A stretch of 64,000 nucleotides of DNA from an uncultured Chloroflexia bacterium (GCA_963775935.1 CAVZKR010000006.1:111198-175197), one strand, 5' to 3'; positions 8,931-60,797 are shown, numbered from the stretch's first letter. Notes: a model not told the origin generated them from the sequence alone. Numbers and translations: made by a program.

Positions 8931-9461
8931 TTAAAGTCGCACACGGGTCTTTTTGGATTTAGTACCATCATTTTTCATTATTTGAAGTATCTGTTCTTTC
9001 TGTTGTTTTAACAGAGACCTAAATACTCTCATATCTTCTTTCGTAAAAGAATGCATAGCCTGTGAAAAAACACGATGTTCTATCGGCAGAATCATCTCGA
9101 CTAAGTCTAAGCCTTTTTCAGTCAGTGTTACTTTTCGTATTCTGCGGTCTTTATTTGAGTGATAGCTCTTGGTTATTCCCATTTTATCAAGGGCATCGAT
9201 AGATTTATTTATCCTGTCTACTGAATGAAGCGAGATTCTACTGAGTTCCGTGGGAGTCATAAATTCACATTTTAATAGTATAAAGAGAATAATCATCCGC
9301 TGAGTACGATTGATGCTATCATTACTTAGTTGTGCATCAAGATATTTTTCAATCAGGTGAGTTAAATAAAGGAAATCGCGAAAGCTACGTATCTTTAATT
9401 CTTTGCGCTGTTTTTCTAACCTCTTTGCTAACTGGTACCATTTCTCCGAAGGTTTGACCAT
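8931..9461 (-). CDS. MarR-family transcriptional regulator
   Basis: 176-aa ORF with winged-helix region LKCEFMTPTELSRISLHSVDRINKSIDALDKMGITKSYHSNKDRRIRKVTLTEKG, typical of MarR. Divergent from the gene at 9849. Confidence 0.8.
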   Translation of the reverse strand: MVKPSEKWYQLAKRLEKQRKELKIRSFRDFLYLTHLIEKYLDAQLSNDSINRTQRMIILFILLKCEFMTPTELSRISLHSVDRINKSIDALDKMGITKSYHSNKDRRIRKVTLTEKGLDLVEMILPIEHRVFSQAMHSFTKEDMRVFRSLLKQQKEQILQIMKNDGTKSKKTRVRL

Positions 9462-36427: not shown

Positions 36428-36450
36428 GGCGATGGAATCGCCTATTTATT
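36428..36450 (+). terminator. Possible intrinsic terminator between convergent genes
   Basis: GGCGAT-gga-ATCGCC hairpin (6-bp stem) followed by TATTTATT. Lies 36 nt after the MFS stop and overlaps the stop of the convergent rdhA-like gene. Confidence 0.4.
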
Positions 36451-37597: not shown

Positions 37598-37903
37598 TTT
37601 CACCTTCTTACTAAATTATTTACATTAATTGGTTAAGTTGTTGACAATAGTCTGAAATATGCTAGAACGTTTCTCCAAAAATTTACAATAAACCTCAAAC
37701 TAATTTACGTGAGTTACTGAAGTAGAATCTGCTTCTGAATTTTGGCTTAGTAGTTGGCTAGACTGATATAGAATATATAGACATTCATTTTAAGGTTTTC
37801 CATGGCCTGTAGAATTAAGTTGAGCAATAGTATAACTATTGAGGGCAAGTCACTGTGGGAAATAAAAAAGTAGGCGTAACCCATCTTAGGACAGCCTTTA
37901 TTA

Positions 37904-39667
37904 TTAGCGCTTAGCCCTTAGTTTTTTTGTTGCCTTCTGGTCAATTTCGAGAGTGTCGGGATTGAGTACTACTTTATAAATTTTCCTGGCTGCTTCCAAC
38001 GACACTATTTCATTTTTCACATCCATTTTTACAGCCTCCGGATCACGTTCTTCCGGTGGACCTACACCAGCACCACCACCACTATGACACAGAAGTACAT
38101 CGCCAGCCTTGATATCATGTACTAAATGAAGGTTGCCAAAAGGAATCCTCTCCTTTCCTCGCACGATGTAAATCTTATTGAAAGGAGTGGGCGAACCTCC
38201 CAGTTGTCCTTTGCTCTGGACACTCCAGCCGCTACAGGCACCACTGATGGTCACACAGTCAGCTCCCTCGTTGACACTTTCCAACCAGATACCAGGGGCA
38301 CCACGCCACTTTCCTGCGCCTGGTGAATCGGTGAGAAATTCATATGTTTTCACGCGCCAGGGGAATCTCTCCATCTCTTCCTCGGCATCAGTTTTACTGA
38401 CGACACCCATGGTGCCCAGTTCGCAACAACACTGGTAGCCATCATAGCCGTACACGGCACCCGCACCGCCAGTAGAGCCGAACGTAGTGCACACATACAG
38501 TTCATTGGTTCGCGGGTCGATACCAACGTACTGACCTGGACCGGCTAGCCTGCCATACGGGGCAATGGCACGTTCTGGCAGAGCCTGTGACAATGCTGAA
38601 AGAACACATTCGGTAATGAGAGCACCAGTTAGTCCGGGTGTGGCTGCAGTCAGTGCACCAGGTCTAGCATTTAACACCGTGCCTTCTCGAGCAATCACGT
38701 GAATAGGTTTCAGACTCCCTTCATTATGATAAGCACTCAGCTCAGTGCCCAGGAACATGAAAACAGTGCACATAGTAACACTCTGAGTAACAGAGTAAAC
38801 GGCATTGACATAGCCTGGACGTTGTTCATCGCTTTCCGAGAAGTCGAAGGTGGCTTCATCACCTTTGATGGTTAGCTTACACCTGATGGTTACTGGTACG
38901 TCCAGCTCTTTGCCATCGTCATCCATCTTCGCCTCCGAGTAATAGGTCCCGTCTGGCCATTTGGCAACCTCTGCACGTACCGCTTTTTCAGTGCGACGTA
39001 TCATTTCGTCTATGCAAGCGAAAACCGTCTTTTTGCCATACTTATCAAGTAGTTCTATCAGCCTTCGCTCCGCTAATGAGGTGCTGCCTATGAGAGACTG
39101 TATCTCCCTACGCATCATATCCGGCATGCGATTATTACTCAGAATCAGTTCCACTACATCATCCCTCATCTGGCCTCTTTCTACCACTTTCACCGGTGGG
39201 ATGTTAAGGCCCTCAGCAATAGAATCGTTGGCCAGAAAATGGGTGCCTGCCCGAGCTCCTCCATTATCTGGAACATGGGTACCCATGCAGCTGAAAAATA
39301 CCAGCTCCCCCTTATAGAATATCGGCCGTATGAATACCCAATCCGGCAGGTGTACTGCTCCCGCCTTAAAAGGATGGTTGGTCAGGAACTCATCTCCAGG
39401 GTAAATTTTATCACCGAATATCCTTTTCACTGCCTTGATGGGATAGGTACTGGATATCAATCGCGGGGGAAAACCTTCGGGAATGGCAATTACTTTTACA
39501 TCTGCATCCCATATTCCGTAAGCCAGGTCATGGAGCGAGGTGGCCAGGACATTGGTAGCTGTCCTTTCCATGGTCTCACGCATATCGACGCAGACTCTCT
39601 GTAAATAGTGCCATATAGTGGCGATAGTAAGGGGATCAACCTGGATTTTCCGTTTTGATTGAGGCAT
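37904..39667 (-). CDS. Hydantoinase B / oxoprolinase family protein (HyuB-like)
   Basis: 587-aa ORF with VDPLTIATIWHYLQRVCVDM. Starts 2 nt after the HyuA stop. Confidence 0.85.
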   Translation of the reverse strand: MPQSKRKIQVDPLTIATIWHYLQRVCVDMRETMERTATNVLATSLHDLAYGIWDADVKVIAIPEGFPPRLISSTYPIKAVKRIFGDKIYPGDEFLTNHPFKAGAVHLPDWVFIRPIFYKGELVFFSCMGTHVPDNGGARAGTHFLANDSIAEGLNIPPVKVVERGQMRDDVVELILSNNRMPDMMRREIQSLIGSTSLAERRLIELLDKYGKKTVFACIDEMIRRTEKAVRAEVAKWPDGTYYSEAKMDDDGKELDVPVTIRCKLTIKGDEATFDFSESDEQRPGYVNAVYSVTQSVTMCTVFMFLGTELSAYHNEGSLKPIHVIAREGTVLNARPGALTAATPGLTGALITECVLSALSQALPERAIAPYGRLAGPGQYVGIDPRTNELYVCTTFGSTGGAGAVYGYDGYQCCCELGTMGVVSKTDAEEEMERFPWRVKTYEFLTDSPGAGKWRGAPGIWLESVNEGADCVTISGACSGWSVQSKGQLGGSPTPFNKIYIVRGKERIPFGNLHLVHDIKAGDVLLCHSGGGAGVGPPEERDPEAVKMDVKNEIVSLEAARKIYKVVLNPDTLEIDQKATKKLRAKR

Positions 39668-39669
39668 AC

Positions 39670-41733
39670 CTATTTCCTCCTCGTAATACTATAGTTATTG
39701 TACTCATCAACCTCACACTGATAACCAGGGGGAATGACCGCGGTAGTAGTCGGGACCTCGATTATTGCAGGTCCAACTATAGTATTTCCCGCTTTAAGTT
39801 TTTCACTATCATAGATGGGTGTCTCCACCTGTTTGTCGCTGAAGAGGCAAGTTCTCTTCCGCTTGAATGCCTTTGAAGGATCTTTCGTTCCTTTCGGTAT
39901 TCTATGTAACTCAACTTTCTTTCCTGTTACCCTGGCTATCAATCGAAGATTTCGAATCTCAATCGGAACCCACGCCAAAGTAAACGTATAAAGCTCCCGG
40001 TGCTTGTCATGAAATTTCTTTGCCAGTTCTTCGAGATCCTTGGGAATAATCTCTCGTGGTGGCAGTTCTACCTCAACCTCATGGTATTGACCTTCATAGC
40101 GTAGGTCAGCAGATTGAGTAATCAACAACTTTTCCGAGGATTCGTTAAATGCTTTCAGCTCAGCCTGGGCTTCCTTAAGCATTTCTTTGTACAATGAGTT
40201 GATCTTTGCCGGCTTTGCTTTGCTGAGCTGACAAATGTATGATCGTAAATAGTCACGGCCAATGTCGAGCGTAAACATGCTCCAGGCACAAAAAGAAGAG
40301 GCATAGTTCGGCACAATCACCTTCTTGCAACCCAGCAGCTCTGCCCAGAATGCTCCGCACATCGGACCTCCCCCACCACAAGCTACCAGGCTGAAATCTC
40401 TGATATCATAGCCCTTCCTTGTTGAGATACGCGTTATCTCATCTGCCATATTAGCGTTAACTGTACTGAATATAGCCTGGGCAGCTTTCTCAATCGAAGT
40501 ATGCAGACGAGTAGCTATCTTTTTTACCGCTTTCCGCGCCAATTCTTTGTTGAGAGGAACCTTTCCTCCACAGAAAAAATCGGTTGGCAGATAGCCTAAC
40601 ACCACCGCTGCATCGGTAACTGTTGGCTCTGTGCCACCTTTGCCATAACAAACTGGCCCAGGGTCAGCTGCTGCACTTTGCGGTCCTACTCTGAGCAGAC
40701 CAAGAGAATCAAACCAGGCAATACTGCCACCTCCAGCACCAATACTGCTGACATCCGCTACCTTGATGCCGATTTTGTCATCGTTAAACCATCTACCAGC
40801 TTTGAGGATTACTTCACCATTCTTGACTAAAGCCGCATCCAGCGTGGTCCCACCCATGTCTGCCGTAACCACGTTGGGTTCGTTGATACGCTTTCCTAAA
40901 TAGGCTCCACCAGGAGGTGCTGCCGCTGGACCGGAACCAAACAAGTACACGGGCTTTTTGGCTATTGCAGAAATGGACTGCGTAAATTGATTTGCCTGCA
41001 TTATCAGCAGTTGCCCTTGAAAACCGGCTTTCCTCAATCTCCCCTCAAGGCTCGCCATATATTTTGATACCACAGGACCAACACAGGCACTGATAACACA
41101 GGTGCTTTCTCGCTCATATTCTCCCATTTTAGGAAGAATATCACTCGAGTAAGTAATAAAAACCCCTTTTAGTTCTTGTTCACAGACTTGAGCAGCTTTT
41201 TTCTCATTTTCGGGATTGGCATACGAGTTGATAAAACAGATGGCAACCGCCTCGATTTGTTCCTTCTTTAGCTTTTCGATTACCTCTTTGAGTTCGCGGA
41301 CATCAATAGGTTTCGTTACCTCTCCTGTATATCTGGTTTCCTCATCAACAGTAAATCTGAGGTAGCGTGGTATTATCGGCTCGTATGGGGGAATATAGGC
41401 TTCATACATAGAATGAGTTTCGATTTTCAACGCACGGCGCATCTCGATGATATCCCTGAATCCCCTGGTAGTAATCATCGCTGTTTTTGCCACATTTCTG
41501 GTGACTAGGGCATTTGTGGCTACGGTCGTACCATGGACTATTAATTCGATCTTCTCCATGAACTTAGTAAAGGGTAGTCCATAAGCAACTGCCGCTTCCT
41601 TTAATGTGCTCATGACACCCATAGAGAAGTCATGTGGAGTGGTGGGAACTTTATGCTCCGAAATCTTTCCTGTTGCGTCAATTATTATCGAATCGGTGAA
41701 AGTCCCACCTATATCCACGCAAACTTTGTACAT
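39670..41733 (-). CDS. Hydantoinase A / oxoprolinase family protein (HyuA-like, ATP-binding subunit)
   Basis: 687-aa ORF. MYKVCVDIGGTFTDSIIID and ADMGGTTLDAALV are actin-like ATPase motifs typical of HyuA/AcxA/Apc subunits. Confidence 0.85.
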   Translation of the reverse strand: MYKVCVDIGGTFTDSIIIDATGKISEHKVPTTPHDFSMGVMSTLKEAAVAYGLPFTKFMEKIELIVHGTTVATNALVTRNVAKTAMITTRGFRDIIEMRRALKIETHSMYEAYIPPYEPIIPRYLRFTVDEETRYTGEVTKPIDVRELKEVIEKLKKEQIEAVAICFINSYANPENEKKAAQVCEQELKGVFITYSSDILPKMGEYERESTCVISACVGPVVSKYMASLEGRLRKAGFQGQLLIMQANQFTQSISAIAKKPVYLFGSGPAAAPPGGAYLGKRINEPNVVTADMGGTTLDAALVKNGEVILKAGRWFNDDKIGIKVADVSSIGAGGGSIAWFDSLGLLRVGPQSAAADPGPVCYGKGGTEPTVTDAAVVLGYLPTDFFCGGKVPLNKELARKAVKKIATRLHTSIEKAAQAIFSTVNANMADEITRISTRKGYDIRDFSLVACGGGGPMCGAFWAELLGCKKVIVPNYASSFCAWSMFTLDIGRDYLRSYICQLSKAKPAKINSLYKEMLKEAQAELKAFNESSEKLLITQSADLRYEGQYHEVEVELPPREIIPKDLEELAKKFHDKHRELYTFTLAWVPIEIRNLRLIARVTGKKVELHRIPKGTKDPSKAFKRKRTCLFSDKQVETPIYDSEKLKAGNTIVGPAIIEVPTTTAVIPPGYQCEVDEYNNYSITRRK

Positions 41734-45068: not shown

Positions 45069-45288
45069 ATAGCGCTTGTTAATTCCTTGTTAGGCAATGT
45101 TTTGTATATACGTTTCTGCGATATGCAATTAGGTTAGTTCCCATTGACGCGTCGGTACGGTAGTTTTTTGTGATATCAGAATGATTATTAGTTACTTGAA
45201 CAAGGAGGTGGTGTCTATGAATGTCGCATAAAGAGACTCAAAAATGTCCTATCTAAATAATGAAATGGTTAAAAAAGGGGGACAAGTA

Positions 45289-46368
45289 ATGAGAAGTCGT
45301 TTTCTTATTTCATTTACAGTTTTGCTAGCTATTCTTGTGATCCTTTGTGGTTGTGCAGCACCAGCACCAGCACCAACTCCAGCTCCTACTCCTGCCCCAG
45401 CGCCTCCAACCAAGGCTGTAGAACTTAAATGGGCAATGCAACAGGCGCCGATGAGTAACCAGATCTTAAAATGGGCTAATCCTTTGGCAGAAGAAATCGG
45501 CAAGAAGTCTAATGGGAGGCTGAAGGTAACTGTCTACCCTGCCGAGGCTTTAGGTAAGGGGGCTGAACACTGGAATATGCTTACTAATCGCGTCTGCGAC
45601 ATTACCAATTTACATCCTGCAGCCTATGGTAAAAATTGCCCGCTCTGTGCCTTTATTACCGTACCACTTGGTCTCGATATACGAATGAAAAATAAAGAGG
45701 GCAAATATATTGTCGATTTCATCGGTGAAAAATATATTAGCCCGACACTTCCTTTTAAATCACTAGCTTATTACCAATATGGCATGAACGAGTTTATTAT
45801 GGGCAAAAAACAGATAAAGACAGTAGAGGATTGTAGAGGGATAATACTAGGCTACACGTCAGGTAGGCCTTATCAACTCTTTCTACAGAAGCTCGGAATG
45901 GCTCCTGAACAGATTGGCTTGCCTGATACCTATATTGCCATAGATAAAGGGACAATAGATGGTTATTGGGCAGGCTCCAGCATCATCGAGTCTTTTGGCC
46001 TGGGTTCGGTGATAAAAAATATTACTACGGACGTGAATGTCAGTACCTCACTTGATTTTCTTGCTATGAACAATGATACCTGGAAAAGCCTGTCGCCTGA
46101 AGACCAGAAAGTTATTAATGACGTCTCTATCCTCGCGAGGGAGATGTGGTATGACATACAAATTGATCAGAATAAAGTTGGCAGACAGCTGGCGGTAGAG
46201 AAAGGTGGTGCCAAAGTCTATAATCTTCCCCCCGCTGAGAGGGATCGATTTATAAGTATTGCAAGTGATGTAGCTGATGACTGGGCAAAGGAATTGGATG
46301 GACGCGGGTTGCCGGGAACGAGCCTTATTAAAGATTTGCGTCAACAGTTGGCTGAAGTCAAAAAGTAA
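45289..46368 (+). CDS. TRAP transporter solute-binding protein (DctP-type), lipoprotein
   Basis: ATG 45289 after AAGGGGGA. Signal peptide plus lipobox ILCGC, Pro/Ala/Thr linker APAPAPTPAPTPAPAPP, then DctP-like fold. Followed by dctQ/dctM-type genes. Confidence 0.8.
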   Translation: MRSRFLISFTVLLAILVILCGCAAPAPAPTPAPTPAPAPPTKAVELKWAMQQAPMSNQILKWANPLAEEIGKKSNGRLKVTVYPAEALGKGAEHWNMLTNRVCDITNLHPAAYGKNCPLCAFITVPLGLDIRMKNKEGKYIVDFIGEKYISPTLPFKSLAYYQYGMNEFIMGKKQIKTVEDCRGIILGYTSGRPYQLFLQKLGMAPEQIGLPDTYIAIDKGTIDGYWAGSSIIESFGLGSVIKNITTDVNVSTSLDFLAMNNDTWKSLSPEDQKVINDVSILAREMWYDIQIDQNKVGRQLAVEKGGAKVYNLPPAERDRFISIASDVADDWAKELDGRGLPGTSLIKDLRQQLAEVKK

Positions 46369-46425: not shown

Positions 46426-46493
46426 GCTGGGAAGCTATCAGATAAGTATAGTGCGTCTTTGTGATGTCGCCTCATCACGGAAGGAGCAAGGTA

Positions 46494-47024
46494 TTGATTA
46501 GGTTTAATAGGTTACTCGACATTGCCACAAAAGTCATACACCGCATATCAACGTATCTGATATGGATTGGAGTTGCTCTAATAAGTGTAATAATACTGCT
46601 TGTTGTCGGCAATGTTATCGGACGCTATGGATTTCGCCATCCTGTTTTAGGGCATGTAGAAGCGGTGCAGCTTCTTTCAGTCGCGCTGGTTTTCTTTATC
46701 ATGGCCTATACTGAGTATAAAAATGGCCACATTAAGGTAAATGTCGTAACTCGTCTTCTGTCAAGGCGTGTTCAGACCATACTAGGACTGATTACATGTC
46801 TGATTACCACGACGTTTGCCGCGTTAATGTGCTGGCAAGGTATGGTTCGGGGATTTGAAAATGTTTTTCCTCTTCTCACGCAAACTGAGGCTTTATTCAT
46901 CCCATATGCTCCTTTTGCATTCTGTATAGCACTGGGAAGTTTATTGTTTACTTTGGAATTGTTGATACATTGTTTGCGCTATATATATCCCGCGAATAAA
47001 GAAAATGGAGGGCCAGATAAATGA
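46494..47024 (+). CDS. TRAP transporter small permease (DctQ-type)
   Basis: Four hydrophobic spans, GNVIGRY motif, stop overlaps the dctM-type start (ATGA). TTG 46494 has AAGGAG 7 nt upstream; the track's GTG 46461 is the longest alternative. Confidence 0.75.
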   Translation: MIRFNRLLDIATKVIHRISTYLIWIGVALISVIILLVVGNVIGRYGFRHPVLGHVEAVQLLSVALVFFIMAYTEYKNGHIKVNVVTRLLSRRVQTILGLITCLITTTFAALMCWQGMVRGFENVFPLLTQTEALFIPYAPFAFCIALGSLLFTLELLIHCLRYIYPANKENGGPDK

Positions 47025-48319
47025 GCCCCGAAATAGTGGGAATTCTCATGTTCGGTCTTTGTTTTATACTAATGTTCTCGGGAATGCACCTCGGCGCAGC
47101 GATTGGCATTTCCGGCTTCATTGGCCTGATTATTATCGACAGTTTTGGGCAAGCAGCAGGTACCGTGGGAATAAGTGCCTATAGCTCTGCATGTTCCTAT
47201 GATATGGTTCTTATTCCAGTCTTCCTGGTTATGGGTGAACTGGCCTTTGTTTCGGGGTTAAGTAAAGAAGGTTACAATGCAGCGTACAAGTTGATAGGGC
47301 ATCTGCCAGGCGGTTTAGCCATGGCTACCATCGCAGGATGCTCCGCTTTTGCCGCAGTGTGTGGCTCAAGCGCTGCTACTGTCAGTACCATGACTACTGT
47401 CGCTCTGCCGGAGATGCGTAGGCGTGGATATGAACCTACTCTATCAACAGGCGCTCTGGCTGCTGGAGGTACATTGGGTATCCTTATACCACCGAGCGGG
47501 TGTTTTGTCCTTTATGGAATTATCACGGAACAATCCATAGGCAAGCTATTCATAGCCGGCATTTTACCTGGACTGCTGCTGAGCGCAATGTTCATAGTTG
47601 CTATATATATTATAGCTAAAAGAAACCCTTCTGGTTATCCTCCAGCACCCAAGTTCGGCTGGCGAGAACGGTCAGTCGCCGTCATGAATTCCTGGGGAAT
47701 ATTCATATTGTTTTTAGTGGTTATGGGCGGCATTTACTCGGGAATTTGTACTGCGAATGAAGCTGCATCTTTGGGGGCTTTTATTGCCTTCCTCATAGCC
47801 ATAGTCAAAAGGCGTCTGGACAAGAAAGATCTACTTCATTCAATGATGGATGCGCTTGAAACCACTGGCTTTATTTTCTTAATCGTCATTGGTGCCAAGG
47901 TTTTTAATGTCTTTTTTGCAGTGACGAAGATACCTATGCTGTTAGCAACTTTCTTGGGTGCCATGAATGTCACACCGCTGGTCTTCATAATTGCTCTTAT
48001 TATTCTCTTTTTAATACTAGGGTGCGTCATGGATGCCTGGGCAATGTTGCTGCTTATGGTACCCGTGTTACTTCCTTCCGTTAAAGTCATGGGGTTCGAC
48101 TTCATATGGTTTGGTGTTTTTATGGTCATAATGGTGGAAGCGGGAATGATTACTCCACCGGTGGGCATGAATGTGTTTATACTCAGTGGTCAGGCACCCG
48201 ATGTCCCCATGTACAAAATTTTCAAAGGTACAATGCCGTTTCTAATATGCATGCTGATATGTGTAGCCCTCCTAATAGCCTTCCCTGATATCGCATTGGT
48301 ATTGCCGCGAGGGATGTGA
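47021..48319 (+). CDS. TRAP transporter large permease (DctM-type)
   Basis: 432-aa polytopic ORF with GGLAMATIAGCSAFAAVCGSSAATV and GTLGILIPPS motifs typical of DctM. Confidence 0.9.
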   Translation: MSPEIVGILMFGLCFILMFSGMHLGAAIGISGFIGLIIIDSFGQAAGTVGISAYSSACSYDMVLIPVFLVMGELAFVSGLSKEGYNAAYKLIGHLPGGLAMATIAGCSAFAAVCGSSAATVSTMTTVALPEMRRRGYEPTLSTGALAAGGTLGILIPPSGCFVLYGIITEQSIGKLFIAGILPGLLLSAMFIVAIYIIAKRNPSGYPPAPKFGWRERSVAVMNSWGIFILFLVVMGGIYSGICTANEAASLGAFIAFLIAIVKRRLDKKDLLHSMMDALETTGFIFLIVIGAKVFNVFFAVTKIPMLLATFLGAMNVTPLVFIIALIILFLILGCVMDAWAMLLLMVPVLLPSVKVMGFDFIWFGVFMVIMVEAGMITPPVGMNVFILSGQAPDVPMYKIFKGTMPFLICMLICVALLIAFPDIALVLPRGM

Positions 48320-48520
48320 GGAAAGCTACCATTAAAATATGGTGGCAAATAAAAATACGATGGACTAAAGAGATTATACTGCTGTTAATAACAGCGGTTT
48401 TATTATCGTTATCCGAAGGGATTCAGCACTGGAAAGTAGGACAAAATTCAAGATTTCACTATATGTTCTTTAATAACTGGAGTTTCAAGTTGAGATTAAA
48501 TTAAAGGAGGCTTTTTTATG
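48300..48520 (+). repeat. Direct repeat copy 1 (dctM 3' end + terminator + leader + RBS/ATG)
   Basis: Aligned by eye to 49580-49800 at a constant offset of 1280 nt, with 4 mismatches in 220 nt. Confidence 0.9.
48378..48406 (+). terminator. Intrinsic terminator after dctM-type gene
   Basis: ACTGCTGTT-aat-AACAGCGGT (9-bp stem, one G-U pair) followed by TTTATTAT, 59 nt after the stop at 48319. Confidence 0.6.
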
Positions 48521-49564
48521 ATAGTCGATGTTAACCTGCACTGGTACCCTGATTTTTTCTATTCGGATAAATCTTTTCTGAAGCAATGTCTGCGTACAAT
48601 TCCTCGGGCTTATGGTGAGCATGTGCGGATTGATGATGTTCCTGGATCTTATAAAGTACAAATTACTACATCGCGTCCAAAGGGCTATGAAAACCTGAAC
48701 TTTCCTTTGGAAATCACTGATACGGAAGACCGTCTAAAAGCTATGGATGAAGGCAAGATCGATAAGGGCATCCTGAGATGGCCCATTTGGCCAGAGTGGG
48801 TAACTCTGGAAATATGCCGTAAGGTCAATGATGCTATGGCTAAAACTGTGAGGGAGCATCCTGATAGGTTCTTAGGTCTTGCTATCGTGCCGCCATGGGG
48901 CGATGAAGACTGTCTTGCTGAGCTTGATCGTTGTATCCATGAACTCGGTTTCGTCGGGGTACAGGTTGAAGCGCATTACGGCACCCTTTACCTTGATTCT
49001 GAAGAGTTCAGGCCCTTCTTCAGGAAAATCAATCAATTGAATGTGCCGATCATTGTTCATCATACTGCTCTTCCTGTCGATTATGGCCATGTCTACGACT
49101 ATACCAACCTGCGCCGTATGTTCGGCAGGTGTATCGACCAGATGACATCTGTGGGCAGGATAATGTACAGCGGGATGCTTGATGAGTTACCCAATCTTAA
49201 ATTCGTCCACAGCATGATGGCTGGAGGGCTGTTTGCTTACGCAGACTTAATTACACCAAAAAAATCAAAGGTTTCAAGCGATATGGAGCGCTGGGATCCA
49301 TCAGCCTCTGAGAAGGTCAGGGGTTACTTAGAAAAGAATATCTACTCTGATATCACCCATGCCCCTACATGGGGAACAGCACAGTTAGAATGTGCTGTTA
49401 AAGCGCTGGGTGCTAAAAATGTTCTTTTTGGAACTTCCTACCCTCTCCGAAAGGAGTGGTTGCTAGAAGGCGTGGGCTATGTACAGAGTTTAGATATAAG
49501 TAAGAAAGATAAAGCGCTCATCCTGGGTGAAAATGCCATGAGATTATTTAATATAAAAGACTAA
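48518..49564 (+). CDS. Amidohydrolase-2 family protein, divergent active site
   Basis: 348-aa ORF with AAAGGAGG RBS. MIVDVNLHWYPDFF, VPIIVHHTALP, FVHSMMAGG, LFGTSYPL. Confidence 0.8.
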   Translation: MIVDVNLHWYPDFFYSDKSFLKQCLRTIPRAYGEHVRIDDVPGSYKVQITTSRPKGYENLNFPLEITDTEDRLKAMDEGKIDKGILRWPIWPEWVTLEICRKVNDAMAKTVREHPDRFLGLAIVPPWGDEDCLAELDRCIHELGFVGVQVEAHYGTLYLDSEEFRPFFRKINQLNVPIIVHHTALPVDYGHVYDYTNLRRMFGRCIDQMTSVGRIMYSGMLDELPNLKFVHSMMAGGLFAYADLITPKKSKVSSDMERWDPSASEKVRGYLEKNIYSDITHAPTWGTAQLECAVKALGAKNVLFGTSYPLRKEWLLEGVGYVQSLDISKKDKALILGENAMRLFNIKD

Positions 49565-49579
49565 AGATTGACCTATTAT

Positions 49580-49800
49580 TATTGCCGCGAGGGATATGAG
49601 GAAAGCTACCGTTAAAATATGGTGGCAAATAAAAATACGATGGACTAAAGAGATAAAACTGCTGTTAATAACAGCGGTTTTATTATCGTTATCCGAAGGG
49701 ATTCAGCACTGGAAAGTAGGACAAAATTCAAGATTTCACTATATGTTCTTTAATAACTGGAGTTTCAAGTTGAGATTAAATTAAAGGAGGCTTTTTTATG
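49580..49800 (+). repeat. Direct repeat copy 2 (includes a non-functional copy of the dctM 3' end)
   Basis: Same 220 nt as 48300-48520 with 4 substitutions. It starts with ATTGCCGCGAGGGAT, which in copy 1 encodes the last residues (LPRGM) of DctM. Confidence 0.9.
49658..49686 (+). terminator. Duplicated copy of the terminator hairpin
   Basis: Identical hairpin ACTGCTGTT-aat-AACAGCGGT + TTTATTAT within repeat copy 2, 94 nt after the stop at 49564. Confidence 0.5.
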
Positions 49801-50844
49801 ATTGTCGATATTAACCTATCTTGGTACCCCGATTTTTTCTATACCGATAAAGCTTTTTTTAGGGAATGTCTGCGGACAATACCCCGTGCTTATGGCGAGC
49901 ATCTGATAGTTGAGGATGTACCTGGAACTGATAAAAAGCAGATCAAACTTCAACGTCCTAAGGGATACCCAAATCTTGAATTTCCTATTGAGGCCGCGGA
50001 CCCTGAGGACCGTATCCGGGCTATGGATGAAGGTAAGATCGATAAGGGTATTATGCGCTGGTGCATCTGGCCAGAGTGGGCAACCCTTGAAATATGCCGG
50101 AGGGTCAATGATGCCATGGCAAAATCGGTCAAAGAACATCCCGACCGGCTTCTAGGTCTTGCTATCGTGCCTCCATGGGGAGACGAGGACTGCCTTGCCG
50201 AGCTGGATCGCTGCATTAAAAAACTTGGTTTCGTGGGGGTACAGGTTGAAGCGCATTACGGCACCCTCTATCTGGACTCGGAAGAATTCCGACCTTTCTT
50301 CAGGAAGGTTAATCAGCTTAACGTGCCGATTATCGTTCACCATACGGCCTTGCCGGTCGACTATGGCTCTATACTCGACTATGTCAATCTGCGCCGTCCC
50401 TTTGGAAGATGTATAGATCAGATGACCAGTGTGGGCAGGATAATGTACAGCGGGATGCTTGATGAACTTCCGAATCTCAAGTTCATCCACACGATGATGG
50501 CTGGAGGCCTGTTTGCGTATACAACTCTGATTACACCCAAGAAATCGAAGGTAGCGACGGATATGGAACGTTTTAACCCGGAGGCCTCGGAAAAGACGAA
50601 GGGGTATCTGAACAATAATATCTATGTTGAGCTCACACATGCTCCAGCCTGGTCTAACAGCCAGATAGAGTGTGCTGTCAAAGAATTAGGCGCCGAGCAT
50701 ATTCTCATGGGCTCTGTCTATCCACTGCGTAAAGAGTGGCTATTGCATGAAGTAGACTTTGTTGAGAATTTGGACATAAGCAAGAAGGATAAATCGCTTA
50801 TCCTTGGAGAAAACGCTATAAGGTTATTCAATATAAAGGGCTAG
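49798..50844 (+). CDS. Amidohydrolase-2 family protein, divergent active site
   Basis: 348-aa ORF with the same RBS as 48518. MIVDINLSWYPDFF, VPIIVHHTALP, FIHTMMAGG, LMGSVYPL. Confidence 0.8.
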   Translation: MIVDINLSWYPDFFYTDKAFFRECLRTIPRAYGEHLIVEDVPGTDKKQIKLQRPKGYPNLEFPIEAADPEDRIRAMDEGKIDKGIMRWCIWPEWATLEICRRVNDAMAKSVKEHPDRLLGLAIVPPWGDEDCLAELDRCIKKLGFVGVQVEAHYGTLYLDSEEFRPFFRKVNQLNVPIIVHHTALPVDYGSILDYVNLRRPFGRCIDQMTSVGRIMYSGMLDELPNLKFIHTMMAGGLFAYTTLITPKKSKVATDMERFNPEASEKTKGYLNNNIYVELTHAPAWSNSQIECAVKELGAEHILMGSVYPLRKEWLLHEVDFVENLDISKKDKSLILGENAIRLFNIKG

Positions 50845-51261: not shown

Positions 51262-52204
51262 ATGAAATATAATTATGCCATGCGTGCTGATAATGTCTAT
51301 GTGATTGATACCAAAATGTTTGGTTTTGACAATTATATGTCCGCTTTTTTAGTAGAAGGGAAGGAACTTGCACTAATCGACACTGGTTTGCCCAATCAGC
51401 TGGAAGCAGTACGCACAGGTATAAAAGCACACGGATTCTCTATCAGTGACATATCTCATATATTCGTTACCCACGCACACGAAGATCATTCTGGGAATGT
51501 AGGTCCTTTGTTAAGAGAAAGTCCAAAGGCAAACGTTTATATCAATCCTGCAGGTCTGGAATTTCTTACTACACCATCTATCGAGGAGGCTAGGCGGAGG
51601 AAGGAACTTTTAGCAAAGATGAATGATAGATTCGGTAAAATGGAACCTGTTCCTCCATCACGAATACGATATCTGAAAGATGGTGAGAAATTTGACTTGG
51701 GTAACGGTACGAACGTTAAAGATTATTTTCACACCAGGGCACCAACCTAGCGGGATAGTTATATTTGAAGAGAAAAACAGGGGTTTTTTTATTAATGATT
51801 TGGTGGGAAATTATTTTCCTGATTGTGATTATTTACAAATTCTTGCTCCAATCCGTTCGGATATTAAGAAGGCAATGGAATTACTAAGGAAGGTTATAGC
51901 TATACCGGTTACCAATCTGTTTTTAGGCCATTTTGGCATTTGTGATAAACCGAGAGCACTGATACAACGTGCCTTGGACGGCATGCAGCAGCTTATGGAT
52001 ATTGGAGCACAGTGTATAGCAGAAGGAAAACCAGAGGAAATTGAACCTAGAGTTTTGGCCGTCAAGAGGCTTGAGGCAGAAAAAATTCGAGCGAGAGGGG
52101 AGGATGTTTATGAGCATGAATCAGATGAATTAATAACTCACCAAGCAAAATATTTCGCCAAATATTACCAAGAATTACACGAGAGGAATAAACCGGCTTC
52201 TTGA
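51262..52204 (+). pseudogene. MBL-fold metallo-hydrolase with +1 frameshift (paralog 3)
   Basis: ORFs 51262-51750 and 51680-52204 together cover a full-length paralog. Against 52358-53281, the segment GGT-ACGAACG-TTA (51709-51715) has 7 nt where 6 are expected, moving LGNG.. out of frame from ..LKIIFTPGHQPSG. Confidence 0.7.
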
Positions 52205-52357
52205 GATGAATCTGAACATGGGGTGAATATTGGGCAATTCGATGTTGTGATAATATGGTAAACATACGGAATCTAGTGGGCAGTGATGTCATTTTAAGAT
52301 ATGTGATACCTCTAACCTTCGGAACCAAGAATTTTATAGAGGAAGATGTATTGTTTT

Positions 52358-53281
52358 ATGAAATATAAACATCCCACACGTGCTGATAATGTATATGTGA
52401 TCGATACCAAGATGTTCGGTTTTGAACACTATATGTCCGCCTTTTTAATAGCGGGGAAAGAGCTTGCTTTAATCGATACAGGATTGCCAAACCAGCTGAA
52501 AGCAGTACGCGCTGGTATAAAGGCACATGGCTTTTCTATTAGTGACATATCATACATATTTGTTACCCATGAACATCAGGATCATTCAGGAAATGTTGCT
52601 CCCTTATTAAGAGAGAACCCGAGGATAAAATTCTATATTCACCCACTTGCTGCTCCATTTGTCATTGACCCATCCCTGGAAGACGCCAATAGGAAACAGA
52701 ATCTTCCTTCAAAGATGGCTGCTAGATTCGGCACAATGGAGCCAGTTCCTCGAGAGCGCCTAAACTATTTAAACGACGGCGATGTGTTTGACCTTGGCAA
52801 TGGTGAGAAATTAAGGATTATCTTTGCACCAGGGCACCAACCCGGTGGTATAGTTATACTTGAAGAGAAAACCAAAGGGCTCTTCATTAACGATCTCGTG
52901 GGGAACTGTTTTGCTGATTGCGATTTTCAATTAATTCTCAATCCACCACGGTCTGCTGTTAAGCAGGCCATGGAGTCACTGAGGAATATCCAGAACATAC
53001 CTGTCGCCAGACTTTTTCTGGGACATTTCGGCATTAGCGATAAACCAAAAGAACTGATAGAGCGTGCCCTGGATGGTATGCAACAGCTCATGGACATTGG
53101 AGCGGCATGTGTAGCAGAAGGAAAGCCAAGCGAAATTATTCCTAGAGTTTTTGCCTTCAAGATGTTGGAGGTAGAAAAACTAAAAGCAAGAGGAAAAGCC
53201 TTATATGAATATACGAGTCAAGAGCTGGTATCATCGCAAGCAAAATTGTTCGCAGATTACTACTTGAGTATACAACGATAA
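52358..53281 (+). CDS. MBL-fold metallo-hydrolase (paralog 4)
   Basis: MKYKHPTRADNVYVID N-terminus as in the paralogs (ATG 52358; the track's ATG 52346 has no spacing from AGGAAG). VTHEHQDHSGN, APGHQPGG, LGHFG. Confidence 0.85.
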   Translation: MKYKHPTRADNVYVIDTKMFGFEHYMSAFLIAGKELALIDTGLPNQLKAVRAGIKAHGFSISDISYIFVTHEHQDHSGNVAPLLRENPRIKFYIHPLAAPFVIDPSLEDANRKQNLPSKMAARFGTMEPVPRERLNYLNDGDVFDLGNGEKLRIIFAPGHQPGGIVILEEKTKGLFINDLVGNCFADCDFQLILNPPRSAVKQAMESLRNIQNIPVARLFLGHFGISDKPKELIERALDGMQQLMDIGAACVAEGKPSEIIPRVFAFKMLEVEKLKARGKALYEYTSQELVSSQAKLFADYYLSIQR

Positions 53282-57250: not shown

Positions 57251-58492
57251 TTAGGCACAATACTGAATTTCCGCATTGGGATAGACCGCGACTTTAACAT
57301 TACCCCTTACATGGTTACCATTCTCAAATAGCTTTAAAACCTTTTCCCATGTGTTCACCAGTATGACCTTATTTTCAGGACTACAAGAGCAGGCTAAAGT
57401 CGGATCAGGGTACTCGCTGAAAATGATCAGCCTGTTTATATGATGTGGAAGCTTAAACTTTCCGGACATGGGACCGCCGCTATTTCTACCGAATGTACCC
57501 AATAGATAATGAATAACGTGACCATCAGGCGCATTGCAAATCAGTATTAAATCTCCACCCTGACTGCTGACAGAGGGTATAGTATTGGACATTCCGCCTT
57601 GTGGTTCATTCACTTTGGCAAAGATATTGGCGATTACTACGTCATTATCGGTGGCTCTAGTGCTCAGATAGTGTTTTTTAGCTATTTCTACTCCTGCTGT
57701 AAAAGTCGACTGCGGATTTCCTGAAAAAATATGAGTTGTTTCTCCCCACATATTACATATGCAATCAATCTTGTAATTTAGCCCGACAATCGTAGCTGCT
57801 TCATCTATCTCCTGACGAAGTGGGTTATCTTTATAAATACCCATTCCCAGATGCCTTTCCTGTTTGACCTTTGCGCCCAGTCTATGGAGAGCCTCGTTTG
57901 TCCCTATTGAAGTTATTCCAGGAAGAACAATTTTGGAGCCGCCACTGAAACCTAAGAGAACATGCGGTGCAATCGAACCAATGCCAATCTTAAAGTCACA
58001 CTTCATTACCTCGGCATTTGCCAGAACCCTGATTCCCTTACTGGTAGTACCCACATAAGTGCAGGAATTGTCGAGTGCATTATGGTTATAGACTGGAAAC
58101 CTGGATACCACTTCTTCACCCAGCTTCCTTACAAAGTCAAATCTACCCATTGTCCCATGACAGCCTAAAGCAGAGATAAAGCGTATCCTGTTATCTGGAA
58201 TCCCTGCCTCAACCAGTTCTTCAAGAACAAATGGCACTATCTGCGCCACCCGGGTGACCCGGGACATATCATCAAAAATTATCGCCACCTCCTGTTTATT
58301 TTTAGCTAGTTTCCCTATCCGAGGCGAACCGATAGGTTTCTGTATGGCAGCTCTTATTTGCTCCAGCTTCATTGCTGGCACATTGAAGCCTTCCATATTA
58401 TAAACACCTACCTGCCAACTATCCGGTACAGGAAGGTTTGATTCGCTACTACCATACCAGGCTAACTGCGGCAACTTAATAGTATTAGTCAT
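57251..58492 (-). CDS. LarA-like protein (lactate racemase N-terminal domain / DUF2088; nickel-pincer-dependent 2-hydroxyacid racemase/epimerase family)
   Basis: 413-aa ORF with IIFDDMSRVT, ALGCHGTM, and APHVLLGFSGGSKIVLPG. By eye these match the LarA His108 / His174 / Lys184 contexts. Confidence 0.75.
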   Translation of the reverse strand: MTNTIKLPQLAWYGSSESNLPVPDSWQVGVYNMEGFNVPAMKLEQIRAAIQKPIGSPRIGKLAKNKQEVAIIFDDMSRVTRVAQIVPFVLEELVEAGIPDNRIRFISALGCHGTMGRFDFVRKLGEEVVSRFPVYNHNALDNSCTYVGTTSKGIRVLANAEVMKCDFKIGIGSIAPHVLLGFSGGSKIVLPGITSIGTNEALHRLGAKVKQERHLGMGIYKDNPLRQEIDEAATIVGLNYKIDCICNMWGETTHIFSGNPQSTFTAGVEIAKKHYLSTRATDNDVVIANIFAKVNEPQGGMSNTIPSVSSQGGDLILICNAPDGHVIHYLLGTFGRNSGGPMSGKFKLPHHINRLIIFSEYPDPTLACSCSPENKVILVNTWEKVLKLFENGNHVRGNVKVAVYPNAEIQYCA

Positions 58493-58603: not shown

Positions 58604-60439
58604 TTAGAGACATTGTTCCAAACCCAACTCAATAAGTTTTTCCCTGGTTGGTATACCCTCTTCACCCCACCCCCTGACGATATAATACTCATTTAACATT
58701 GTCCCAAAATGAAAAAGATTTCCCCTGGTCCCTCCTGTAGTAAGTTTATGGGTAAGAATTCGAGGTGGCAACATATCATCTTTTCGGCTGATTCCACGCT
58801 TTACACTAAACATACGTTTAAGATTAAAAATGCGCTCACCAATTAGTATAAACTCATCCAGAGTCATATCCCACCCCGTGGCACTATTAAGTGCCTGCAA
58901 AAGATATGAGGGTTGTACTCCGTTACCTACAAACAAAAACAGGCAAACAGTAATAGAGTCCAGCATACAACCAAAATCCTGTGTCTTGGCTACCAACCTC
59001 CCCTTACCCTCTACATCAAAACGATTAAAAGCAACCGGAAATCCCAATTCCGGAGAAGTCCGCGGCTGAGGTAATTCCATCCAGTTTTCCAGGTGGTCAG
59101 CACCAACAGGCTCCATATGAGCTGCCCCGATACTGCCTGTGGCATATCCCAAAGCATGACTGGCCAAAGAACGTGGGTCATGTGCGGGGAACTCCAGGCC
59201 TTTAACATGCATAGCATACTCAGAGGCAATTCCCCCAATGCGCTCGGCAGCCCTCTTGACACCCTCCCCAAGTAACTCCCCAAATCCCTCACGTTCGCCT
59301 ATCTTCTGCAATAGTGCCATTACTGCTTCAAAATTACCCCATTTCAACTCGATACCGTCAGTATCCTCCTTGTTAATCAATCCCTTTTCAAAGCACTCGA
59401 TAGCGAAGGAGATGACAGCACCAGTGGATATTGTATCCAGACCATACTTATTGCAAAGAGTATAAGCCTCCTGCATGGCCTCGGCATTGGCAATATAGCA
59501 ATTAGTACCGAGCGGCCCCCACGATTCCCATACCATATGCCTCTCGCCGCTCTTAAGCTGGTATGATTCTAAACAGCTATTAGGACAGCGTGCACAGTGC
59601 AGAGGCTTCGCATCGCGCATGGTTTCGGTATATACACGACCTTCTTCAAAAGAACCTTCTGACCAGTTTTTCACCGGTACCCGACCGTAGACAAAGAAAT
59701 TTTTAAATACCATCATGTCGTTGGCAAGACGTTCCTCTGGTTTTGCTATCTGACAGAAAGGGCGTATCTTCTGCACAGCCTCATTGAGCTTCCCCTCATC
59801 ATAGAAGTTTATGGGCAGCGTCCCCCTGACTGCGATAGCTTTCAGGTTTTTCGACCCCATCACCGCTCCCAGACCGCATCGAGCTGCTGCTCTACCTTGC
59901 TTGCCATCATTCATAACGCCAGCAATCTTCACCAGTCTCTCGCCAGCTACACCAATGCAGGCAACGCTGGACTTAGCATCGGTCTCACGTTGGAGTATGT
60001 CAGACACTTCATACGTATCTTTGCCCCAAACTTGCACGGCATCACGGATTTCAGCTTTCTGATTATGTAGCCAAAGGTATACAGGCTTGCTCGCCCGACC
60101 CTCCACAATAATGCCATCAAGTCCAGCATGCCTCAGTTCATCAGCAAATCTACCTCCTGAATGAGCCTGTCCCCATATACCAGTAAGAGGAGAAATACCA
60201 GCAATAATATAGCGACTGCTTTTCGGTAAAATACTACCTGTAAGAGGCCCTGCCATGAATAGTAACTTATTTTCAGGTGATAAGGGGTCAGTGTCAGGTG
60301 TTGTCTCATCCCATAAAATTTTTGCAGCTAAACCAACACCACCAATGTATTTCCTTGCCTTCGGTTCATCAAGGTAATCATAGTTTATGTCTCCAGTAGA
60401 CAAATTAACACGCAGGATTTTACTATTATAACCTTTCAT
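58604..60439 (-). CDS. Aldehyde:ferredoxin oxidoreductase (tungstopterin AOR family)
   Basis: MKGYNSKILRVNLSTG N-terminus (ATG 60439 follows GAGGAGAG by 8 nt; the track start 60457 is longer). CARCPNSC (CxxCxxxC) cluster motif and AOR domains 1-3 length. Confidence 0.85.
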   Translation of the reverse strand: MKGYNSKILRVNLSTGDINYDYLDEPKARKYIGGVGLAAKILWDETTPDTDPLSPENKLLFMAGPLTGSILPKSSRYIIAGISPLTGIWGQAHSGGRFADELRHAGLDGIIVEGRASKPVYLWLHNQKAEIRDAVQVWGKDTYEVSDILQRETDAKSSVACIGVAGERLVKIAGVMNDGKQGRAAARCGLGAVMGSKNLKAIAVRGTLPINFYDEGKLNEAVQKIRPFCQIAKPEERLANDMMVFKNFFVYGRVPVKNWSEGSFEEGRVYTETMRDAKPLHCARCPNSCLESYQLKSGERHMVWESWGPLGTNCYIANAEAMQEAYTLCNKYGLDTISTGAVISFAIECFEKGLINKEDTDGIELKWGNFEAVMALLQKIGEREGFGELLGEGVKRAAERIGGIASEYAMHVKGLEFPAHDPRSLASHALGYATGSIGAAHMEPVGADHLENWMELPQPRTSPELGFPVAFNRFDVEGKGRLVAKTQDFGCMLDSITVCLFLFVGNGVQPSYLLQALNSATGWDMTLDEFILIGERIFNLKRMFSVKRGISRKDDMLPPRILTHKLTTGGTRGNLFHFGTMLNEYYIVRGWGEEGIPTREKLIELGLEQCL

Positions 60440-60797
60440 TATTTGCTCTCTCCTCATACCACACTGTGTGGCAACAAGAAATACTCATATTGTGCGCAAT
60501 AATCTTGTACCTTGTCAAACCCTTAATCCTGTCTGGAAAAGCTCGCCTTAAAAGCGGTTTTAAGAGTGGCTAAAAGTTACACGACTCTAAAACAGTTCAT
60601 CGCGCTTTCAAACCCCATCTCCCACTCTGTTGCCCCCTTAAATACAAAATAAACCTATTGACATACCCTGGAGTAACTGACATTATATAGTTAATGCGGA
60701 GTACTTCTGCACAGCTACAGTTAACAAACAGTTAGATTGAAAATTGTGACTGTGTACGCAATCGCTAACAAATGACCATTATTCAGGGAGGAGATCA

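Follow-up and report, generated by a model that had tools for sequence, protein, structure and literature searches.

How does an amidohydrolase work once the residues that define its active site have been replaced? This question is raised by a stretch of 64,000 nucleotides from an uncultured Chloroflexia bacterium (GCA_963775935.1 CAVZKR010000006.1:111198-175197), here called the window, which carries five paralogous genes for amidohydrolase-2 (AH2) proteins, P0001 to P0005. The strand-8 Asp is regarded as a hallmark residue of the amidohydrolase superfamily, and in the COG2159 decarboxylases it is both a metal ligand and the proton donor. The original prediction held that all five paralogs lack this Asp together with the first His of the metal site. 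We found that a clade present in about 300 bacterial and archaeal species genomes has exchanged Asp for Ser and His for Met under strong selection. A conserved altered site of this kind shows that the scaffold supports a chemistry or a mechanism not yet described. The clusters that host these genes appear to degrade gallate-type polyphenols, which are central to carbon preservation in peat and wetlands, and in them at least one step, a decarboxylation or the opening of a ring or lactone, has no assigned bacterial enzyme. The question can be tested directly, since members of the clade occur in the easily grown and genetically tractable Pantoea, Raoultella, Klebsiella, Bradyrhizobium, and Microbacterium.

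Active-site positions of the five paralogs

The five genes are spread over the window. P0001 (4530 to 5573, minus strand, 347 amino acids) reads IIDLNMGW on strand 1 and FGGGYP on strand 8 and lies between an MBL gene and HyuB. P0002 (9849 to 10892, plus strand, 347 amino acids; IIDVNMHW and FGTSYP) heads a long plus-strand run, and P0003 (41847 to 42893, minus strand, 348 amino acids; IVDVNLHW and FGTSYP) is the first gene of an AH2-HyuA-HyuB cassette. P0004 (48518 to 49564, plus strand, 348 amino acids; IVDVNLHW and FGTSYP) is directly downstream of dctM, and P0005 (49798 to 50844, plus strand, 348 amino acids; IVDINLSW and MGSVYP) follows directly behind P0004. Translations of the open reading frames were identical to the predicted motifs, which are DLNMG, DVNMH, DVNLH, DVNLH, and DINLS on strand 1 and GGGYP, GTSYP, GTSYP, GTSYP, and GSVYP on strand 8. 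All five thus share the patterns D-x-N-x-[H/G/S] and G-x-[S/G/V]-Y-P. Each matched the Pfam model PF04909 (Amidohydro_2) with 85 to 102 bits (E values from 1e-23 to 6e-29), which is three to four times the gathering cut-off of 26.4 bits.

Four methods were used to align these proteins with canonical enzymes. With phmmer against PDB chains, FGTSYP was paired with FSTDWP of gamma-resorcylate decarboxylase (gamma-RSD) and YAMDYP of LigW, and a 40-sequence profile searched against the PDB gave the same strand-8 register (E values of 1e-32 to 1e-35). MAFFT, run with about 110 canonical representatives, matched VDVNLHW without a gap to IDVHHHW or IDxExHF. Finally, hhalign of the subfamily profile against the canonical profile (probability of 100%, E value of 3e-84) returned the same equivalences: N6 is the first metal ligand, H8 is the second ligand, H181 is the strand-5 His, H182 is a canonical Pro, M233 is the strand-6 catalytic His (His218 in gamma-RSD, His241 in LigW, and His228 in ACMSD), and S307 is the strand-8 Asp. 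In P0004, the codons are at 48533 to 48535 (N6), 48539 to 48541 (H8), 49058 to 49063 (H181-H182), 49214 to 49216 (M233), and 49436 to 49438 (S307) on the plus strand, and the protein also has H231.

Thus, the canonical Asp and the first metal-site His are absent from all five proteins, as predicted. The strand-1 [H/E]-x-H motif is missing: the first ligand is Asn in every paralog, and the second His is kept in three and is Gly in P0001 and Ser in P0005. The strand-8 Asp position holds Ser, Gly, or Val. The canonical strand-6 His is gone from all five, being Met233 or, in P0002, Tyr. The canonical strand-5 His metal ligand is retained as H181 in all five. Three of the five canonical catalytic positions are therefore replaced in every protein. 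P0003 and P0004 have the standard signature of the subfamily, and P0002 differs in its strand-6 residues (N6, H8, H181-H182, F231, Y233, and S307). P0005 is a variant in which both H8 and S307 are gone (N6, S8, H181-H182, H231, M233, and V307), and P0001 is stripped further (N6, G8, Q87, H181-H182, F231, M233, and G307).

Two parts of the prediction needed correction. It had described the strand-5 HH as kept, and this holds for the canonical H181; H182, however, replaces a Pro found in 78% of canonical relatives and is a novelty of the subfamily. It had also noted a strand-6 His in the three close paralogs. That residue, H231 of FIHTMMAGG, is present in them, but it is not the canonical catalytic His, which corresponds to Met233 or, in P0002, to Tyr. 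In some canonical relatives the two His residues occur together (HxHLGG). The Arg that binds the leaving carboxylate, 11 residues past the strand-6 His in canonical enzymes, was aligned with Met or Leu at position 244 by HMMER and hhalign and with the invariant R258 of E-R-F-D by MAFFT.

We considered whether the missing residues could be an artifact of alignment by eye, in which case these proteins would be ordinary metal-dependent decarboxylases. The N-terminal 60 residues do fall outside the Pfam and PDB local alignments. However, strand 1 was aligned without gaps by both hhalign and MAFFT, and the four methods concur on strands 5, 6, and 8. The profile alignment put neither an Asp at the strand-8 position nor a His at the first metal-ligand position. 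A register error is thus excluded, and we give an artifact practically no credence.

The AlphaFold2 (AF2) model of P0004 is a (beta/alpha)8 barrel (pLDDT of 89, pTM of 0.89) in which N6, H8, H181, H182, M233, and S307 lie at the C-terminal ends of strands 1, 5, 6, and 8. Its best Foldseek matches were ACMSD, gamma-RSD, and LigW (E values of about 1e-20, with 2.5e-20 for the top match, and TM scores of 0.7 to 0.8, or more narrowly 0.75 to 0.79). By sequence, the five genes are members of a large monophyletic PF04909 subfamily on the ACMSD, gamma-RSD, and LigW (COG2159) branch.

A conserved subfamily with a rebuilt site

How widely is this altered site shared, and is it maintained? A homolog search over 5.8 billion proteins returned 226 homologs, most of them 50 to 86% identical, and a scan of GTDB species genomes returned 300 relatives. 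In an exhaustive HMMER scan of 1.84 billion representatives clustered at 50% identity there was a sharp break, with full-length relatives followed by canonical ones that aligned only from about residue 65. The subfamily is monophyletic with respect to its closest canonical relatives, with a support of 0.94. A conserved segment of about 40 residues, peculiar to the subfamily, is inserted after strand 1.

Position statistics were taken from 196 unique subfamily sequences and 106 canonical relatives. Position 6 is Asn in 92% of the subfamily (canonical, His in 56% and Glu in 20%), position 182 is His in 99% (canonical, Pro in 78%), position 233 is Met in 86% (canonical, His in 94%, or 100/106), and position 307 is Ser in 90%, or 177/196 (canonical, Asp in 96%, or 102/106). 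Position 8 is His in 92% of the subfamily and 93% of the canonical proteins, and position 181 is His in 99% and 97%, respectively. The altered-site pattern, at 90 to 99% in the 196 homologs versus 0 to 1% in the 106 canonical relatives, is far beyond chance. In addition, R87, W94, W127, Y154, N197, R199, Q208, and W314 do not vary within the subfamily and are seldom seen in canonical proteins; Arg87, Tyr154, His182, Asn197, Arg199, and several Trp residues are new invariant residues at the barrel mouth. H153, H181, and H182 are invariant even in paralogs without H8 and S307, and H231 is variable (85% His, otherwise Pro, Tyr, or Phe).

The closest genomes are metagenome-assembled genomes (MAGs) of Dehalococcoidia and Chloroflexia, and matching DNA comes from wetland, soil, and sediment metagenomes. 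Other carriers include MAGs of actinomycetes, Thermoleophilia, Acidobacteriota, and one Nezhaarchaeota archaeon, the cultured genera Klebsiella, Raoultella, Pantoea, Kluyvera, Cedecea, and Mixta, the genera Bradyrhizobium, Rhizobium, Azorhizobium, and Devosia, Microbacterium, Leifsonia, and Gulosibacter, and Desulfosporosinus and Propionispora. A blastn search of Escherichia coli genomes found no homolog. Across the carriers D-x-N-x-H is kept save for rare variants, namely Tyr8 in two loci and Asp6/Gly307 in the archaeon. On the contig of 217 kb that includes the window there are at least seven paralogs, which bears out the predicted expansion in this genome.

Loss of three of the five canonical catalytic residues from all five paralogs might mean that these are noncatalytic pseudoenzymes acting as binding, scaffolding, or regulatory subunits. 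P0001 and P0005 also lack H8 and S307, P0001 lacks R87 and H231 as well, and P0005 lies directly behind a sister, P0004, with an intact signature. However, pairwise dN/dS among the five window paralogs was 0.03 to 0.14 with dS saturated, and these values include P0001 (about 0.1) and P0005 (0.03 against P0003). The replacement residues are 86 to 99% conserved over the 196 sequences, and the genes fill an enzyme slot in catabolic operons. That this conservation extends over several bacterial phyla and one archaeon argues for a working site rather than a relaxed one. Thus the site is rebuilt and maintained under strong purifying selection, not decayed, and together with the monophyly and the fixed alternative signature this sustains the predicted divergent subfamily. 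A noncatalytic role is improbable for the family as a whole and plausible for P0001 and P0005 only.

The fold and the family are known. Compared with gamma-RSD (2DVT, 4QRO), LigW (4QRN, 4ICM), ACMSD (2WM1, 2HBV), and IDCase (4HK5), the subfamily has the same Pfam domain and TIM barrel, with TM scores of 0.7 to 0.8 and 20 to 28% identity. It shares with the COG2159 decarboxylases the ND, ExxR, and LD motifs, the strand-5 His, and the second strand-1 His, and like theirs its genes lie in aromatic-acid catabolic clusters beside flavin monooxygenases. Unlike them, it has Asn for the first ligand, Met for the strand-6 His, Ser for the strand-8 Asp, and probably Met or Leu for the Arg 11 residues past the strand-6 His; the invariant Arg87, Tyr154, His182, Asn197, and Arg199 and the insertion of about 40 residues set it apart as well. 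No structure of the subfamily is in the PDB, where the best chains (E values of 1e-23 to 1e-35, about 20 to 28% identity) all have the canonical site. There is no specific NCBIfam model for it, no names are recorded for close homologs, and annotation of the clade goes no further than "amidohydrolase family protein." In the literature searched we found nothing relevant on a characterized member and no paper on a PF04909 member with a strand-8 Ser. What is new is a widespread, conserved subfamily with a rebuilt site, and its assignment to the pathways described below is well supported by gene context.

Two other lineages of the fold were compared. LigI (2-pyrone-4,6-dicarboxylate lactonase), LigY, and LigJ carry out metal-free lactone hydrolysis, C-C hydrolysis, and hydration on the same fold, with acids derived from lignin and polyphenols as substrates. 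All three retain an acidic strand-8 residue and the HxH pair. LigY and LigJ were matched by the subfamily profile (E values of 8e-8 and 3e-16) and are more distant than the decarboxylases; LigI was absent from the PDB match lists at E values of ≤1 and 0.01. A LigI-type metal-free lactonase (COG3618) was rejected because the strand-8 Asp is absent and LigI was not among the PDB matches. The amidohydrolase-related dinuclear oxygenases (AROs; PtmU3, SfbO, and DitZ) are another PF04909 lineage with a repurposed active site, long misannotated as amidohydrolases, and are defined by an N-terminal D-x-H and a C-terminal D-x-P-H-x-D/E (PMC13154177). Membership in this group was also rejected: both motifs are absent, the sequences reading D-x-N-x-H and S-Y-P-L-R-[KR]-E, and PtmU3 and DitZ were marginal matches only (E values of 7e-3 and 5e-6).

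Gene context, residue coupling, and candidate reactions

In which pathways do these proteins act? To count partner genes, we searched 79 GTDB loci and the window by tblastn with partner proteins. An FAD monooxygenase was found in 33, FAH-family proteins in 31, and DUF3500 in 30, largely in the same loci of aerobes; DctM was found in 18, AthL-like molybdopterin enzymes in 13, a conserved 384-amino-acid family in 13, BthL-like Fe-S subunits in 9, a 7-bladed lactonase in 9, HyuA in 7, HyuB in 5, MBL in 2, and UbiD in 2. Three gene orders recur: PadR, HpaD-like extradiol dioxygenase, MFS, FAD monooxygenase, AH2, DUF3500, SDR, and FAH in aerobes; DctPQM, AH2, MarR, the 384-amino-acid protein, lactonase, AthL, AthL, and BthL in the transhydroxylase type; and DctPQM, AH2, (MarR), HyuA, and HyuB in the Hyu type. 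The prediction that AH2 is always next to MBL, HyuAB, TRAP, or MarR genes is therefore right inside the window, and TRAP, MarR, AthL/BthL-like Mo enzymes, and HyuAB are family-wide partners in the anaerobe-type loci. However, MBL is a local neighbor of AH2, restricted to the window and one close relative (L014), and the aerobes have FAD monooxygenase, DUF3500, and FAH instead.

Both kinds of partner belong to known routes. DUF3500, a flavoprotein monooxygenase, and an FAH-like protein are the products of three of the four genes of a fungal pathway that degrades gallate and 2,4,6-trihydroxybenzoate via 1,2,3,5-tetrahydroxybenzene, in which ring cleavage is probably the task of DUF3500 (PMC10832562). 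Where the aerobe loci have AH2, the fungal cluster has a short Dikarya-specific protein; the partner genes are otherwise the same. AthL and BthL are subunits of pyrogallol-phloroglucinol transhydroxylase, which uses 1,2,3,5-tetrahydroxybenzene as a cosubstrate and is carried by sediment Chloroflexi (PMC3971608), and AthL/BthL-like Mo enzymes are common to the Pelobacter-type transhydroxylase route and the anaerobe-type loci. A marine Dehalococcoidia cell combines AthL/BthL genes with TRAP systems, hydantoinase subunits, and seven "amidohydrolase" paralogs (PMC4959651). Two loci, L004 and L050, also carry 3HCDH (3-hydroxyacyl-CoA-dehydrogenase), SDR, and BKACE-type genes and in this recall the lower phloroglucinol pathway of Clostridium scatologenes (PMC10470551). 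The oxic and anoxic contexts thus converge on gallate-derived tri- and tetrahydroxybenzenes. We know of no description of a PF04909 protein in either the fungal tetrahydroxybenzene pathway or the Pelobacter-type transhydroxylase pathway.

The combination of FAD monooxygenase, AH2, DUF3500, and FAH is a bacterial counterpart of the fungal 1,2,3,5-tetrahydroxybenzene cluster. It is present in about 30 loci (L021 to L043, L058, L065, and L071 to L082) of Enterobacterales, Rhizobiales, Actinomycetes, and Terriglobales and on a Thioclava plasmid (L086), and often adds an HpaD-like extradiol dioxygenase, MFS, PadR-DUF2218, RidA, SDR, and a porin-like protein. No bacterial description of this cluster was found in the searched literature. 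In the transhydroxylase-type loci, the conserved 384-amino-acid protein (for example, L068:6239-7393) has homologs in 13 loci, among them L047, L050, L061, L019, and L016. It has no Pfam match (E ≤ 0.01) and no PDB sequence match. It is always paired with the 7-bladed beta-propeller "lactonase," with AH2/MarR on one side and the AthL-like genes on the other, and is an orphan family of the same pathway.

What reaction could the rebuilt site carry out? In the canonical mechanism, the carboxylate and ortho-hydroxyl of the substrate coordinate the metal, and the strand-8 Asp protonates the ipso carbon before CO2 leaves; a His/Arg/Asp triad surrounds the leaving carboxylate, which is bound by the strand-6 His (PMC6305744). 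With the Asp and His replaced, the canonical proton relay cannot operate here. The predicted change in chemistry is therefore upheld in part: since the catalytic residues are gone, a different mechanism is required, but the net reaction may be unchanged, as the gene contexts are still those of hydroxy-aromatic acid catabolism.

We rank first, though without settled confidence, a role for AH2 as a noncanonical decarboxylase of an imported gallate-type trihydroxybenzoate. TRAP and MFS transporters would import the aromatic acid, AH2 would act early on the imported carboxylate, and nonoxidative decarboxylation of the trihydroxybenzoate would yield a trihydroxybenzene by way of a His-rich site that dispenses with the metal-Asp relay. 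P0001 and P0005, without His8 and Ser307, would be specialized or noncatalytic partners. We put decarboxylation first because it is common to the anaerobic transhydroxylase and aerobic tetrahydroxybenzene routes and because the next enzymes act on phenols. The nearest characterized relatives, by phmmer and by profile against the PDB, are all decarboxylases. Known bacterial gallate decarboxylases are UbiD enzymes that depend on prenylated flavin mononucleotide (prFMN). For the transhydroxylase-type clusters, AH2 is the obvious decarboxylase candidate; enzymes of the UbiD type are almost absent. The loss of metal ligands could reflect the substrate, since gallate lacks an ortho-hydroxyl with which to chelate a metal. 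A precedent for decarboxylating para-hydroxy benzoates without a catalytic metal is AGDC1/PPP2, which acts on gallate and protocatechuate without a cofactor and relies on acid-base catalysis involving a His dyad and a Trp clamp (PMC7862292); its fold is unrelated, and the likeness to AH2 is functional and hypothetical only.

Position 8 was the top covarying site among all conserved columns, and its strongest partner was 307, followed by 286, 89, 6, 208, 231, and 233; except for 208, the covarying positions flank the C-terminal ends of strands 1, 2, 6, and 7 in the AF2 model. H8 and S/T307 were both present in 176 sequences, His only in 4, Ser/Thr only in 5, and neither in 10 (odds ratio of 88, Fisher P of 1.6e-10, uncorrected for phylogeny). 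On the tree, H8 and S307 were lost jointly about five independent times: as S8/V307 in P0005, as G8/G307 with R87Q and H231F in P0001, as M8/C307 in a clade in which two of three members regained His233, as C6/x8/H307 in another clade, and in one very divergent sequence. Ser307 is encoded by TCN in 72 genes and by AGY in 4 genes from separate lineages, and its presence in both codon families indicates selection for Ser itself. Either a functional pair of Ser and His or a set of ligands around a metal site that is still occupied would fit these data. The proximity of H8 and S307 is deduced only from the geometry of the canonical metal site.

Several points weigh against decarboxylation. Ser is not an acid. 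The covariation of H8 and S307, whose statistics carry no phylogenetic correction, looks more like that of a nucleophile-base dyad than a decarboxylase trait, and the carboxylate-binding Arg is either lost (Met/Leu244) or moved (R258), depending on the aligner. In the aerobes, the FAD monooxygenase may itself decarboxylate, as in fungi, so that a separate decarboxylase would be unneeded. The proton-donor Asp and the triad His of the canonical mechanism are Ser and Met here (PMC6305744).

The same coupling supports a different reaction, in which AH2 would be a metal-free hydrolase with Ser307 as the nucleophile and His8 as the base, acting on a cyclic ester or cyclic beta-diketone of the same pathways. 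The substrate could be 5-hydroxydienelactone in aerobes, where AH2 would replace the fungal short Ser-protein, and dihydrophloroglucinol in anaerobes, where it would be a nonhomologous replacement for dihydrophloroglucinol cyclohydrolase (DPGC). No other pair is as tightly coupled as H8 and S307, which are lost together; in the variant clades, a nucleophile is retained with a His nearby (C307 with H233 regained, and C6 with H307); and the codon switching speaks for selection on Ser. PF04909 already holds lactonases and C-C hydrolases (LigY, which was matched, and LigI, known from the literature). Gene context adds that the bacterial cluster holds AH2 where the fungal one has the protein that converts 5-hydroxydienelactone (PMC10832562). 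Moreover, L004 and L050 have PGR-, TfD-, and TAL-like genes, and gene calling in L004 gave no member of the cyclase family (PMC10470551). An identity of AH2 with the known dihydrophloroglucinol cyclohydrolase was rejected, because that enzyme belongs to the cyclase family and not to PF04909.

However, a hydrolase would face different substrates in the aerobic and anaerobic routes with identical active-site residues. AH2 usually lies right behind a transporter, which suggests action on an imported carboxylate, and the Thioclava cluster already includes a dienelactone hydrolase. The M8/C307 clade has no His8, and neither an oxyanion hole nor a triad Asp was identified. We regard hydrolysis as the main rival to decarboxylation, though the less likely of the two.

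A further candidate is a reaction that is neither hydrolytic nor decarboxylating, such as that of a tautomerase, an isomerase, or a LigJ-like hydratase, or catalysis by a metal relocated to the His-rich site formed by H153 on strand 4, H181/H182 on strand 5, and H231 on strand 6. There is a precedent for partial use of the metal site in E. coli NagA, in which only the beta site is used after loss of HxH. H153, H181, and H182 are invariant even where H8 and S307 are missing, the exchanges at positions 6, 8, and 307 bring in Cys, His, and Met, which are typical metal ligands, and the LigJ hydratase is a PF04909 member that the profile matched. On the other hand, H231 is His in only 85% of sequences, adjacent His residues rarely bind the same ion, and no context gene specifically requires an isomerase. 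We consider this set of reactions unlikely.

Noncanonical decarboxylation stays first in our ranking. As a tentative broader proposal, the subfamily may be the first amidohydrolase-superfamily lineage without the strand-8 Asp, with a metal-free Ser307-His8 catalyst in a new His/Arg/Trp shell. It would supply an unassigned step in the bacterial catabolism of gallate, pyrogallol, phloroglucinol, and 1,2,3,5-tetrahydroxybenzene, in both the oxic DUF3500 and the anoxic transhydroxylase routes, either by prFMN-independent decarboxylation of a gallate-type acid or by hydrolysis of a ring or lactone, and would have expanded in wetland Chloroflexi into catalytic and noncatalytic paralogs.

Surroundings of the five genes in the window

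Which of these gene orders does the window itself display? Both the transhydroxylase and the Hyu types are seen, with P0004 after dctM, P0003 before HyuA-HyuB, and P0001 before HyuB. The TRAP genes for DctP (45244 to 46368), DctQ (46461 to 47024), and DctM (47021 to 48319) are on the plus strand immediately upstream of P0004, and the DctPQM-AH2 order recurs in related loci. Downstream of P0003 on the minus strand are HyuB (37904 to 39667) and HyuA (39670 to 41733); HyuA is closest to caprolactamase alpha at 613 bits, which is under the NCBIfam cut-off. A second HyuB-family gene (2737 to 4485, minus strand) is downstream of P0001. Beside the HyuAB cassette, a 385-amino-acid protein (36446 to 37603) has only C-terminal 4Fe-4S dicluster motifs.

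Two tandem molybdopterin enzymes resembling the pyrogallol hydroxytransferase large subunit (AthL-like; 23889 to 26540 and 26644 to 29298, plus strand) belong to a family that adjoins AH2 homologs in 12 other loci. They are part of the same-strand run behind P0002 (9849 to 32015), which includes DUF35/OB-fold, an SCP-x-type thiolase, two acyl-CoA dehydrogenases, and an M24/creatinase-like gene, continues with FAD_binding_2, a CoA-transferase, two FAD_binding_4 genes with a CCG Fe-S protein, and the two AthL-like enzymes, and ends with an HpaB/4-hydroxybutyryl-CoA-dehydratase-like gene and Fe-ADH. This run looks like a complete anaerobic island leading from aromatics to acyl-CoA. A MarR-like regulator (8931 to 9461, minus strand) is upstream of and divergent from P0002; its assignment is weak, with a blastp E value of 9e-7 to a member of the MarR cluster and no Pfam match at 1e-3. 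Nearby, an open reading frame of 162 amino acids (8266 to 8754) with a cupin-like HxH...E motif also has no Pfam match at 1e-3, and a homolog of it lies beside an AthL-like gene in L010.

P0004 and P0005 have almost identical leaders of approximately 215 nucleotides (93% over 300 nucleotides, 48295 to 48594 versus 49575 to 49874), and only a few positions differ before the ATG; the coding sequences diverge right after the start codon, with dS saturated. The repeat starts within the last dctM codons, and in it a hairpin, CTGCTGTTAATAACAGCGG, precedes a T-run. There was no meaningful Rfam match to the duplicated leader, and no RNA sequencing runs covering P0004 were listed. The duplication points to a conserved regulatory leader or to localized gene conversion.

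The MBL-fold gene at 52346 to 53281 (plus strand) is one of four paralogs in the window and a lineage-specific neighbor; the others are at 1765 to 2691, at 5848 to 6795, and, frameshifted, at 51262 to 52204. The last of these adjoins the intact gene and is broken into overlapping open reading frames (51262 to 51750 and 51680 to 52204) by a frameshift or a sequencing error. Farther along, a LarA_N-domain protein (57251 to 58492) adjoins a tungsten-type aldehyde:ferredoxin oxidoreductase (58604 to 60457).

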